Shown here piece by piece: positions 1-3,000 of a stretch of 43,678 nt of DNA. How positions within the stretch are numbered: position 1 is the first letter of the stretch; each line of letters starts with the position of its first letter. The stretch spans positions 1 through 43,678 of the IMG/VR virus record IMGVR_UViG_2531839668_000011; one strand, written 5' to 3'. The position numbers are program-made. Source of the stretch: a virus. Taxonomy: Duplodnaviria > Heunggongvirae > Uroviricota > Caudoviricetes.

Positions 1-3000
1 TATCGCGTCCTCAACAATGAATTTTGTGATGCGGTGCCTGGTGCCTCCAGGTGACGTTAACCAGTTAACAATTAACGCCGGATACAGAGAATCCACCCAT
101 AACACTGTTTTTGGTTTTAACTGTTCCGCGTGCGCTCAGCCGCATTCACCACATCACAAAATTCACTTTAAAAAGGGCGGCAGAGCAGTCACGGAGTAAA
201 ACTGATACCGCCAAACGTCACCAGAAAATTGATAACAGAGGGCGTTGCAGCGGGGTTGTCACTTAAGCGTATGGTCAACCTGACAACCCGGTGTCCTCAA
301 CGGGGGAAGGAATAACCCCGCCATACTTACCGCCGCGCCATTTCGCGGATTGCCACAACCGGAAGCGCACGGTCGACGAAAATTTAACGACAGGCTATCT
401 ATGAACCAGCTACCTCGCCGTGCGCTTTCGCGTTATGGTCTGACTTTTCAGGGAAATATCCTTTCAGTAAACTGTCAATGCCGGATGCTCACCCGTGTCC
501 GGCGCACGCACTCCACCTCACCCGTGGAGAACTCCTTAATTACTAACCTTAGCTTTGTTGATTAGCTACTAACGCGGGTATGTAATCATTCTGGCAATGC
601 TTAATGCCGCTGCTTTTTCCAGATTGGTGATATCCTGCTCCAGAGCGGACAGATTTTCAGCCTGCTTAGCCCTGGCTTCATTGGCCCATTTCAAATCCTG
701 CGCTGCATTAATTTTCTGGCGCATCCACTCATAAAGTTCATCATCGGTATAGTCTGGCGCGATGATGACGGGTTCTCGTTTCTGCATACTGATTCCTCGC
801 GGTGCTGTTTCGCTTATCAGCCGTTAGATTTTGCCGAACTGGAAAGCGCCTGTTTAAATTCGTTGAAGCCGAGAGCTTCTTCGCCGTCGGCAAGACCTTC
901 GAAGTATTCTTCGTAAGCCTTTTCCATGATTGTGTCGAAATCCATATCACTCACCTGAGTTTCTTTCCAGCCAGCGACGGGCACCATTTTCGGTTTTAAA
1001 CGTTTTGCTTTTGGTATACGTCATCGCGGTGAATGTGCCGTCCTGGTTGGGAAACACGCCGTACACCAGAGATTCGTTGTTGCCAAGACCGATAGTATCC
1101 ATGTTGACCTCATTTCCCCTTAACGCCGGGGTAGCGGAACAAAAACCTGCTGCATAGTTATTAAAGTTGAACCCTGCCGTCATGTTCTTACGCCTCGGGC
1201 TGGCTACTTAACCCCTGACCACTGCCTGGTAACTCGAAGTATTGCCCTGCGTTCTGCGGGACGGGGTGGGTTGGTATGAAAGGAAGGATACCCATGGGTA
1301 TTTAAAAAGTAAATACCCATGGGTAATTTTTTTGATGTGTCTTAACTGGTGACTGGTTGTTTGGTGAGTTATGATGCGTTTTGTGCTTTCTTTTTACGGA
1401 TTTCTTCGTAGATCATATTGTAATACTGTTTTTTCTCTTCAAGAGTTTTTAATAAGTTATCCGCTTCACTTTCTGGCAGTTCGTCTAAGAGATCTAAAAA
1501 AATACGTTGTCGTGGCGTTAGAACCCTTGTTTCATAATTGGAGGCTGTGTTCGTTGATGATGAAACGATACCATCCATCCATCCCCGGGGTAACCCAAAG
1601 GACTCTTCTATAATCTCCACCATATCATCAGCGATCCGTTTTTTCCTTTTTCCCCTCTGGGTACAACATTCTTGATACATAAGAAGGCTCGCGACCGATC
1701 TTTCTGGCCACGTTAACCGCTTTACCATCGCATTTCTCATCACGAATTTTGATGAGTTGTTGTCGTCTAAATTCATATTTGTCCATAGGTAAATAATAGA
1801 TGCGATTACCGCAAGGTAAACAACCTAGGGGTATTGACTTTTGTTTACCTGTGGGTATTCTTTGCTGTGTTTACTAAGGAGTAGCTATGGAAGAATTAAG
1901 AATATTTCTCAATTCTCTTTCGTCAGATGAACAGCGTATGTTTGCATGTGAGTGTGGTACTAGCATCGGTTATCTAAGAAAGGCATTGAGTAAAGGTCAA
2001 ATCTTAGGGGCATCGTTATGTGTCCTTATTGAGCGAGCCAGTAATGGTGAAGTTACACGTCAGCAACTAAGGCCTTTTGATTGGATGAATATTTGGCCCG
2101 AGCTGGAAGATACCAAAACGTTAACACAACCACTTACTAGGAGCTTGATTCATGAAAATCAAGCATGAACACATCCGCATGGCGATGAATGCCTGGGCGC
2201 GTCCTGATGGCGAAAAAGTTCCAGCAGCTGGAATAACCCAGGCTTATTTTGAGTTGGGTATGACGTTTCCTGAACTGTATGACGACAGCCATCCGGAAGC
2301 CCTGGCTCGCAATACCCAGAAAATTTTCCGCTGGGTAGAGAAAGACACCCCTGATGCAGTTGAAAAAATTCAGGCGTTGTTACCAGCGATCGAAAAGGCA
2401 ATGCCACCTTTGCTGGTGGCCAGAATGCGCAGCCACAGTTCAGCTTATTTTCGGGAGCTGGTGGAGACGCGGGAGCGATTGGTGAGAGACGCTGATGATT
2501 TTGTCGCAGTGGCAATCGCCGGTTTCAATCAGATGAACCGTGGTGGCCCGGCAGGAAATGCTGTGGCAGTACATTGACTGACAATAGCCATATCGAATCG
2601 CTTCCGGCAACTCGTGAGTAAAAAGATTCGGTATCAGAAGAGGTGAGTATGGCTAACGCTTGGCTCAGATTATGGCATGACATGCCAAATGACCCTAAGT
2701 GGCGAACAATTGCCAGGGTGTCAGGGCAGCCAATTGCAACAGTGATGGCAGTGTATATCCACCTCCTGGTGAGCGCGTCACGAAATGTCACGCGAGGTCA
2801 CATTGATGTCACGACAGAAGATTTGGCAAGTGCGCTCGACGTGACAGAAGAGGTAATTGATTCAATTTTGCAGACGATGCAGGGGCGGGTACTTGATGGT
2901 GATTTAATCACTGGATGGGAAAAACGCCAGGTGCTTAAAGAGGACAACGGCAATATTTCGCAAACCGCAAAATCTCCTGCAGAGCGCAAGAGGGCGCAGC

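Follow-up and report, generated by a model that had tools for sequence, protein, structure and literature searches.

A lambdoid-type immunity region with a DicA-tailed, CI-like repressor gene in a Qin-like Escherichia coli prophage, and its probable misreading through a sequencing frameshift

The stretch of DNA analysed here, IMG/VR record IMGVR_UViG_2531839668_000011 (43.7 kb; hereafter the window), comprises two lambdoid prophages standing in tandem, both with a dicBF-type operon, and the locus near its left end raises the question of which repressor controls that operon in the first of them (prophage 1). In an initial annotation, made from the sequence alone, region 1184-1886 was regarded as an immunity swap, by which the dic operon shared with the second prophage (prophage 2, carrying dicA) had come under a protein of DicA length with a shared C-terminal tail, an unrelated N-terminal domain and different operator palindromes. 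According to the present analysis, prophage 1 very probably has an immunity region of the lambdoid kind on a Qin-like backbone, with a two-domain CI analogue of 139 amino acids (aa) whose gene is broken in the window by a frameshift, most likely of homopolymer-error origin.

In the part of draft contig AFAE02000010.1 (GCA_000194645.2) that was retrieved, the 3,276 bases overlapping the window were 100% identical to it, and the window's near-exact match was the finished genome of E. coli O157:H16 98-3133 (NZ_CP051001.1), from which it differed by five 1-nt deletions, two substitutions and one 2.6-kb insertion or deletion (indel). Genes were placed from the RefSeq annotation of NZ_CP051001.1 and from K-12 reference sequences. 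By self-BLAST, the two prophages were 99.0% identical over window 1..1140 and 30984..32123, the match ending there, and similarity was picked up again only at 3657..4161 (34362..34866, 94%), which confirms the abrupt break that had been placed near 1141/32124. The swap flagged at 1184-1886 is likewise supported, although the exchanged block is larger (1141-3656) and takes in, in addition to the repressor gene, cro, a YdaT/CII-like gene and most of a replication-organiser gene:
1141..3656, no strand: swapped immunity and early-right block, without nucleotide similarity to prophage 2 in alignments
2152..2577, plus strand: YdaT-family gene, CII analogue (PF06254, E=7e-10; PHROG 163 'CII-like', E=3e-45)
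2643..3719, plus strand: replication-organiser-like gene (RefSeq name replisome organiser), in whose 3' end, at 3657, homology to prophage 2 returns

The protein described in the initial annotation is the product of open reading frame (ORF) 1369..1776, and it is at this point that the description fails. The features concerned, including the predicted helix-turn-helix (HTH), are the following:
1369..1786, minus strand: repressor gene, CI analogue, broken here by a -2 frameshift; 139 aa when intact
1639..1651, minus strand: frameshift site; the plus strand of the window reads T6 CC T5, that of intact genomes T7 CC T6
1628..1786, minus strand: true N-terminal HTH (MDKYEF...SYVSRMLYPEGKK), a 52-aa ORF ending just past the frameshift
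1369..1524, minus strand: DicA-type C-terminal helical tail, 33% identical to the DicA tail and 72% to the tail of the CI of phage Tritos

The two T-runs of the plus strand (1639-1644 and 1647-1651) correspond to a change from A6GGA7 to A5GGA6 on the coding strand, the window having GGGGAAAAAGGAAAAAACGG and both NZ_CP051001.1 and strain E2863 having GGGGAAAAAAGGAAAAAAACGG, with one A missing from each of the adjacent runs. The A-runs encode a Lys-rich loop, PEGKKGKKR, lying between helix 3 and helix 4. When both A's were restored, a 420-bp gene starting at 1786 was obtained, encoding the 139-aa WP_000362152.1, a 'hypothetical protein' in RefSeq; the 135-aa ORF 1369..1776 is its downstream frame extended upstream, and its first ~45 residues are out of frame. 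What had been taken as an unrelated N-terminal domain in a same-length protein is therefore misframed HTH-coding DNA. The likeness to DicA restricted to the tail holds after frame repair (C-terminal ~46-50 residues, 33% identity), while the ORF as described is an artefact. The initial annotation had also named a frameshifted dicA fragment as what would refute it; a frameshift was indeed found, yet in a copy of a distinct repressor gene and not in dicA. Both readings of the ORF, as a protein with a new fold and as frameshifted dicA, were rejected.

The intact gene was present in 821-822 of 5,426 complete E. coli genomes, and the -2 allele in none of them. Among 60 complete genomes sampled evenly down the match ranking for a check of A-run length, 59 kept the same length over the 91 nt surrounding the runs. 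All five 1-nt indels of the window relative to NZ_CP051001.1 were homopolymer deletions, falling in four coding sequences that are intact there (the repressor, a small hypothetical gene, an exonuclease and nleB2). Draft AFAE02 and the finished 98-3133 genome were identical over 3,408 nt save these two bases, draft AIFR01 and the finished O55:H7 DEC5B genome were identical save the same two bases, and a third lineage with single-nucleotide polymorphisms of the E2863 type (SRR094977) showed the same -2 change. Since the same double deletion occurred in three lineages and in none of the finished genomes, a recurrent platform error at A6GGA7 is indicated, and the frameshift is most likely a homopolymer sequencing error of an old draft assembly, not biology. 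As for the three other genes hit, the deletion at window 16370 lies inside a 46-aa hypothetical gene, that at 30310 lies in a 3'-5' exonuclease gene, leaving ORF 28044-30278 (744 of 823 codons), and that at 42181 cuts nleB2, encoding a type III secretion system effector, to ORF 41322-42218.

The alternative that fares best is that the frameshift is real, in which case the prophage-1 repressor would be a pseudogene and the dicBF-type operon would be unrepressed, otherwise silenced or cross-repressed by DicA. The identical 135-aa ORF was recovered from two NCBI drafts (AFAE02, AIFR01) and from two independently re-assembled SRA runs (SRR094151, SRR094977), these prophages are damaged elsewhere too (one ydfD interrupted by a stop codon and a frameshifted integrase gene, both in NZ_CP051001.1), and DicA could conceivably step in as a back-up repressor, given that the core operators of prophages 1 and 2 are one base apart per half-site. 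We nevertheless consider a real pseudogene improbable: the allele was found in 0 of ~821 complete genomes, the finished counterparts of the two drafts, matching them over 3.4 kb, possess precisely these two bases, three lineages would need recurrent identical double mutations, and the other indels of the window are also 1-nt homopolymer deletions that break coding sequences, as is typical of platform error. Moreover, loss of the repressor should free the toxic DicB and DicF (PMC10448788).

Much less probable still is that A6GGA7 functions as a slippery or hypermutable tract, the repressor being switched off in part of the cells by phase variation or by programmed frameshifting, with stochastic dicBF expression or prophage induction as the outcome. 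Several frameshift variants do exist in databases (the -2 form P0013, and P0009, P0016 and P0019), some on megabase-size contigs, PHROG 27486, confined to residues 1-50, resembles truncated calls at this site, and the dicBp promoter of Qin switches on stochastically in about 1% of cells (PMC10448788). Set against this are the 59 of 60 sampled genomes without length change, the shortness of runs of 6-7 A for a contingency locus, the zero frame AAA AAA GGA, which is out of phase for classical A AAA AAG -1 slippage, and the product of the -2 form, just a 52-aa HTH fragment; in addition, the Lys-rich loop is kept as protein across genera, which accounts for the A-runs without any switching. The reading of the gene as phase-variable was accordingly considered and rejected. 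Finally, that ORF 1369..1776 could be a genuine 135-aa repressor with a novel, non-HTH DNA-binding N-domain has next to no likelihood, for although the ORF exists and databases list the identical sequence under the name 'hypothetical protein' (P0013), a coding sequence kept from E. coli to Pantoea runs through its first ~45 residues in another frame, these residues have homologues only in frameshifted copies of the same gene, and the ORF is without a family match while PHROG 5736 is matched by the restored protein over its whole length. Protein databases hold many differing frameshift versions of the gene as 'hypothetical proteins' (P0009, P0013, P0016, P0019, P0029, P0033), and PHROG 27486 (59 positions, function unknown) matches residues 1-50 of the repressor only; these versions and this family look like database artefacts of the two A-runs.

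The 139-aa protein obtained by frame repair, considered here as the repressor of prophage 1, matched PHROG 5736 ('transcriptional regulator') over its full length (E=4.7e-70, residues 1-139 against profile positions 1-133 of 133). Its resemblance to DicA was confined to the C-terminal part: by BLASTP only residues 89-134 aligned (33% identity over 45-46 residues, E=2e-7 to 4e-10), the N-domain alone giving nothing against DicA and E=0.02 against the Tritos CI. The NCBIfam DicA model (NF007257) gave 24.1 bits over residues 84-136 only, under its cut-off of 101 bits, DicA in turn matched PHROG 5736 at residues 84-130 (E=7e-9), and no match to the XRE-type HTH_3 family (PF01381) was found in the 139-aa protein by Pfam search. 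The ~50-residue DicA-type tail (LSPKELELLELFNALPESEQD...) is thus present in the repressor. When the family alignment was compared to DicA by hhalign, only the tail was aligned, at low probability, in part because the family alignment mixes S24-type and tail-type C-termini.

Because sequence profiles gave no HTH, this element was recognised through structure prediction. The AlphaFold model, built on a 30-sequence alignment, had a mean predicted local distance difference test score (pLDDT) of 86.8, with N-domain blocks at 92-96; four N-domain helices were predicted (residues 3-18, 23-30, 34-40 and 54-63) with high confidence over residues 1-72, followed by a disordered linker (72-90) and a helical hairpin (92-103 and 106-138). 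All top Foldseek matches in the PDB were XRE or lambda-repressor-fold proteins, including the antirepressor-controlled SPC32H Rep, HigA, the N-terminal domains of TP901-1 CI and lambda cI, and C.Esp1396I, with a root-mean-square deviation of 2.2-2.6 A over 66-71 columns. The N-domain is therefore predicted to be a lambda-repressor-like HTH, of the same fold class as that of DicA, and a different kind of DNA-binding fold was not what the model gave. A match to the ADAR1 Z-alpha winged helix in a sequence search of the PDB (E ~0.08) was taken as chance or generic helix similarity and set aside, because the fold search consistently gave XRE and lambda-repressor folds. Repressors of the S24 class end in a peptidase domain of that family, with a Ser/Lys dyad and cleavage at an Ala-Gly site. 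No PF00717 match to such a domain was found in the 139-aa protein, whose C-terminus is modelled as a two-helix tail. The C-terminus of DicA has been proposed by Yun et al. to be similar to the winged-helix DNA-binding region of RovA/SlyA (PMC3441716); the homologous tail is modelled here as a plain two-helix hairpin, which fits an oligomerisation role better.

The palindromes attributed to prophage 1 in the initial annotation were well supported. The motif TACC-N4-GGTA occurred four times in the 43.7-kb window (at 1289, 1314, 1807 and 1846), always in the immunity region, against 0.27 expected, and none of 100 shuffles reached four sites; the exact sequence TACCCATGGGTA occurred twice only, at 1289 and 1314. 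Together with the promoters matched by scan or read from the sequence, named after the leftward and rightward operators (OL, OR) and promoters (PL, PR) and the repressor-maintenance promoter (PRM) of lambda, these sites make up two clusters flanking the repressor gene:
1285..1313, minus strand: putative PL-like promoter of ydfABC-dicF-dicB, analogue of dicBp, read from the sequence
1289-1300 and 1314-1325, no strand: OL-like operator pair (TACCCATGGGTA) from the motif search, between the repressor stop and ydfA
1793..1820, minus strand: PRM-like promoter from the scan (TTTACC 1820-1815, 16-nt spacer, TATTAT 1798-1793)
1807..1857, no strand: OR-like operators, TACCGCAAGGTA (1807-1818), the degenerate AACCTAGGGGTA (1822-1833) and TACCTGTGGGTA (1846-1857)
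1834..1861, plus strand: PR-like promoter from the scan (TTGACT from 1834, 16-nt spacer, TATTCT ending at 1861)

The arrangement is that of a lambdoid immunity region. The repressor and cro genes diverge from a 100-bp gap (1787-1886), in which two exact and one degenerate TACC-N4-GGTA site overlap the matches to both promoters, the operator at 1807-1818 covering the -35 of PRM and that at 1846-1857 sitting over the spacer and -10 of PR. A second operator cluster lies beyond the repressor gene, at the putative leftward promoter (-35 TTTACT 1313-1308, 17-nt spacer, -10 TATCCT 1290-1285), where the operator again lies over spacer and -10, a geometry shared with the PR of prophage 1 and the dicBp of prophage 2; and a CII-type regulator and a replication gene follow cro. 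By the spacing of PRM, transcription would begin at the first base of the ATG codon at 1786, and a leaderless mRNA is predicted, for which lambda cI and PaaR2 of CP-933P are precedents (PMC8630535). The two OL operators jointly form a perfect inverted repeat (1289..1325, 16-nt arms), whose minus-strand RNA is predicted to fold into a hairpin of -25.7 kcal/mol (z = -5.7) with a moderately U-rich stretch after it; this hairpin could double as a terminator, keeping repressor transcripts out of the toxic dicBF operon.

In order to place the N-domain, operators and Cro among known systems, six immunity regions were examined, namely five prophage regions from seven fetched loci (Salmonella L004-L006, Klebsiella L012, Yersinia L014/L015 and Pantoea L016) and the E. 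coli phage mEp043 (L018). In a large protein search, residues 1-~75 of the repressor were 64-85% identical to the N-termini of 221-242-aa repressors with PF00717 (S24) from Salmonella, Edwardsiella, Yersinia, Klebsiella, Pantoea and others; short forms of 135-145 aa with the DicA-type tail were found in E. coli, Salmonella, Serratia and Yersinia, and among named phages the N-domain of the cI of lambdoid mEp043 (228 aa, S24-type) was 65% identical. The recognition-helix motif REPSYVSRMLY was nearly invariant across these relatives. Wherever a gene with the N-domain was examined, TACC-N4-GGTA occupied the same places in OR and OL next to it (~0.1 expected per locus), most regions having two exact sites and a degenerate middle one in OR and two sites ~25 bp apart at the leftward promoter; the OR of mEp043 contains TACCTGTAGGTA and TACCGGCAGGTA. 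The third component of this unit in prophage 1 is the following:
1887..2168, plus strand: Cro analogue of 93 aa (PHROG 35; identity comparisons)

This protein was 61-73% identical to the Cro of the five regions compared (Salmonella, Yersinia, Pantoea and mEp043, the last at 73%), and no similarity was found in comparisons with DicC or with the Cro of Tritos. A mEp043-type specificity group was delimited, as a working definition, by the N-domain, TACC-N4-GGTA operators and a homologous Cro occurring together, and all three were found in prophage 1. Their co-occurrence, seen in five genera, indicates that they move as one unit, to which a C-terminal repressor half of either kind, S24 or DicA-type tail, can be joined. 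In Salmonella L004 and L006 a ParE-family toxin gene with a small upstream gene lies at 3733-4298, directly downstream of the S24-type repressor with this same N-domain, an arrangement that recalls paaR2-paaA2-parE2 of CP-933P.

A third cassette on the same backbone was found in phage Tritos (OV696610), which has ydfA-ydfB-ydfC-DicF-dicB-ydfD-exonuclease to the left of a 139-aa 'CI repressor'. Tritos DNA was 97% identical to window 1-1271 and 2140-3740 and differed across 1272-2139, with the exception, within the cassette, of the tail-coding DNA at 1369-1485 (76% identical). The comparison defines a minimal cassette and shows recombination inside the repressor gene:
1272..2139, no strand: minimal immunity cassette by comparison with Tritos, comprising OL/PL, repressor, OR and cro

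The Tritos CI has an N-domain resembling HK022 CI and PF07022, related to that of DicA at E=1.7e-7, and a tail 72% identical to that of the prophage-1 repressor. The DicA-type tail is therefore joined to three N-domains (those of DicA, the 139-aa protein and the Tritos CI), and the N-domain of the 139-aa protein is joined either to this tail or to an S24 peptidase domain. The modular exchange of DNA-binding specificity that had been proposed is thus retained, repressor, operators and Cro all differing under a common operon and exchange occurring at the domain level too, whereas the protein for which it was proposed was an artefact. In addition to the 139-aa CI, the Tritos cassette (1586-2470 of locus L019) encodes an unrelated Cro of 108 aa and carries repeats of the GTAC type where the leftward promoter lies.

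On the side of prophage 2, the block is replaced by a module of the Qin type, while the leftward operon is common to both prophages:
1..1140, minus strand: left arm common with prophage 2, up to the breakpoint and including the 5' untranslated region (self-BLAST, RefSeq NZ_CP051001.1)
175-227, minus strand: dicF of prophage 1 (RefSeq and K-12 DicF)
569-787, minus strand: ydfC of prophage 1 (RefSeq)
817-945, minus strand: ydfB of prophage 1 (RefSeq)
947-1102, minus strand: ydfA of prophage 1, product 98% identical to K-12 YdfA
30798-32973: dicB, dicF, ydfCBA, dicA and dicC of prophage 2 (RefSeq and K-12)
32124..34361, no strand: prophage-2 counterpart module, replacing the equivalent of 1141-3656
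32252-32659, minus strand: dicA (HTH_3, E=1e-15; NCBIfam DicA, 235.6 bits; 99% identical to K-12 DicA)
32743-32973, plus strand: dicC of prophage 2
32957-33478, plus strand: YdaT-like gene of prophage 2
32166-32179, 32662-32675 and 32708-32727 (Oc): DicA-type operators of prophage 2

The presence there of a DicA with an XRE-type HTH and of TTAGC-type palindromes, as first described, was substantiated by the HTH_3 match and by the sites located: TTAGCCATGGCTAA starts at 32166, related sites lie at 32662 and 32712, and window 32708-32727 is the DicA operator Oc, TTGTTAGTCATAACTAACAA. Oc has been validated experimentally, and a one-base change in it abolishes DicA binding (PMC3441716). The dicBp of prophage 2 reads TTGACC, a 17-nt spacer and TAATCT, TTAGCCATGGCTAA covering the -10. 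The dicA stop codon is directly trailed by a separate hairpin with a U-run. Two dicF small RNA genes are present (175-227 and 31158-31210, minus strand), each 100% identical to K-12 DicF, which gives the strain at least two loci for DicF and DicB, each controlled by a different repressor. The core operators TACCCATGGGTA (1289-1300) and TAGCCATGGCTA (32167-32178) are one symmetric base apart per half-site; such near-identity despite dissimilar N-domains could have arisen by chance, or the two modules may share an ancestor of which this is a trace. The window's one homologue of the DicA antirepressor Rem, 70% identical to K-12 Rem, lies at 40668-40928 (plus strand) in prophage 2, inside an insert of ~2.3 kb (38701-40977) that is absent from prophage 1.

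We infer that the 139-aa repressor binds DNA, and likewise its promoter positions, leaderless start, heteroimmunity and mode of induction, from the features above, which would work together in the following way. The order would be a leftward ydfABC-dicF-dicB operon driven from the PL-like promoter, a leftward repressor gene, the divergent OR and then cro, the YdaT/CII-like gene and the replication genes. The repressor would consist of ~72 N-terminal residues forming an HTH of the mEp043 cI family and of a DicA-like hairpin of ~50 residues replacing the S24 domain, and its dimers would bind the TACC-N4-GGTA palindromes. The two OL sites, over the PL-like promoter, would keep the toxic dicF/dicB operon off, and the two to three OR sites would serve to close PR and to let the repressor control its own, probably leaderless, transcript from PRM, with the Cro analogue competing for the same operators. 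The 139-aa CI-type repressor thus most likely keeps this toxic copy of dicF/dicB silent. Lacking an S24 domain, it would escape RecA-triggered cleavage, and repression might be relieved by an antirepressor or by stochastic, possibly Cro-dependent, switching, as with DicA.

This scheme agrees with what has been described for related loci. The dicA/dicC locus resembles a lambdoid immunity locus in which dicBp is the analogue of PL, DicA is without a RecA cleavage site and has Rem as its antirepressor, and DicB and DicF are toxic when expressed (PMC10448788); in CP-933P, PaaR2, YdaS and YdaT are the analogues of CI, Cro and CII, and the repressor mRNA is leaderless (PMC8630535, PMC9986795). Given the TTAGC-type half-sites of DicA and the sensitivity of its operator to a single base, the two prophages are, as judged from their sequences, most likely heteroimmune.

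The observations that weigh against the proposed reading are the following. The -2 allele was found in four public data sets, so that a real mutation in some strains keeps a small probability. No Pfam family was found at E<=0.1 for either the frameshifted ORF or the restored protein, and the Foldseek E-values were weak (1e-3 to 0.5), so that the assignment of the N-domain to the HTH fold depends on the predicted structure. The PL-like promoter scores 8/12, under the 9/12 threshold of the scan, and is for that reason treated as putative. A Rem antirepressor homologue belonging to prophage 1 was sought in the window and none was found. Lastly, as the core operators are one base apart per half-site, some cross-binding of the two repressors is possible.

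A more specific proposal, which we regard as tentative and on balance doubtful, is that the 139-aa protein is a natural, non-cleavable 'ind-minus' version of a mEp043-type CI, arisen by recombination in the linker within the gene, by which the S24 domain was swapped for the DicA-type tail. If this were true, the tail would be an exchangeable oligomerisation or induction-sensing module used on at least three DNA-binding domains, the prophage would make its host immune to mEp043-type phages in an SOS-proof way and could dominantly block SOS induction of co-resident prophages with the same operators, and the dicF/dicB operon would answer to a factor acting on the tail, e.g. a Rem-like antirepressor that prophage 2 provides in trans.

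Compared to known systems, prophage 1 is closest in gene order and in its ydfABC-dicF-dicB operon to the DicA/DicC region of Qin (K-12) and prophage 2. DicA and the prophage-1 repressor are both short (135-139 aa), free of S24 and provided with a homologous ~50-aa tail, and in both systems PL and PR have their spacer and -10 covered by an operator, with two clusters flanking the repressor; in contrast to DicA, the N-domain in prophage 1 is without detectable similarity to HTH_3, the operators are TACC-N4-GGTA and not of the TTAGC/TTAGT type, and Cro is unrelated to DicC. With mEp043 and the S24-type CIs of Salmonella, Klebsiella, Pantoea and Edwardsiella, prophage 1 shares the N-domain (64-85%), the OR/OL layout, the Cro (61-73%) and a likely leaderless repressor start, whereas those CIs have 221-242 aa and an S24 autocleavage domain in the place of the DicA-type tail. 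The Tritos CI is like the prophage-1 repressor in its backbone (97%), length (139 aa), tail (72%) and position upstream of ydfABC-DicF-dicB, and unlike it in the HK022 CI/PF07022-like N-domain, the GTAC-type operators and the unrelated Cro.

The bistable OL/PL and OR/PR/PRM design, exchange of the cassette as a unit and HTH fold are those of lambda CI-Cro-CII and of imm434, imm21 and immP22; unlike lambda, prophage 1 has no S24 domain, a YdaT-family protein for CII and 12-bp core operators. RacR/YdaS/YdaT of Rac and PaaR2/YdaS/YdaT of CP-933P also have a repressor gene transcribed away from a cro-like gene, with a YdaT gene after the latter, and RacR and PaaR2 are not SOS-cleaved, a leaderless repressor mRNA having been shown for PaaR2. 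The operators of PaaR2, 18-bp repeats of the GTTTAGTAA type (PMC8630535), are unlike those of prophage 1, and neither RacR nor PaaR2 matched the prophage-1 repressor in any search made.

Immunity-cassette exchange between near-identical lambdoid phages (imm434, imm21) is textbook knowledge, the likeness of dicA/dicC to an immunity locus has been known for long (PMC10448788, PMC3441716), and the textbook picture of lambdoid mosaicism is unchanged by these results. In the literature, no characterisation of the 139-aa protein, the mEp043 cI, the Tritos repressor or their operators was found. What is new is modest: the assignment of a function and of operators with a defined motif to a widespread 'hypothetical protein', and one DNA-binding domain occurring with an S24 domain or a DicA-type tail, as well as one tail occurring with three DNA-binding domains. 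A misreading is corrected as well, since the 'novel' domain came from two missing bases and the same error put a bogus 135-aa protein in public databases, and a working annotation is offered for a RefSeq 'hypothetical protein' of about 15% of complete E. coli genomes, many of them Shiga toxin-producing strains. DicA, the 139-aa protein, the Tritos CI and the mEp043 cI form a natural series for the independent exchange of specificity and induction sensing.

Outside the immunity region, the one large difference from NZ_CP051001.1 lies in the tail-gene region of prophage 1 (~22825-22828), where ~2.6 kb present in that genome are absent from the window; this could be a genuine deletion or an assembly collapse.

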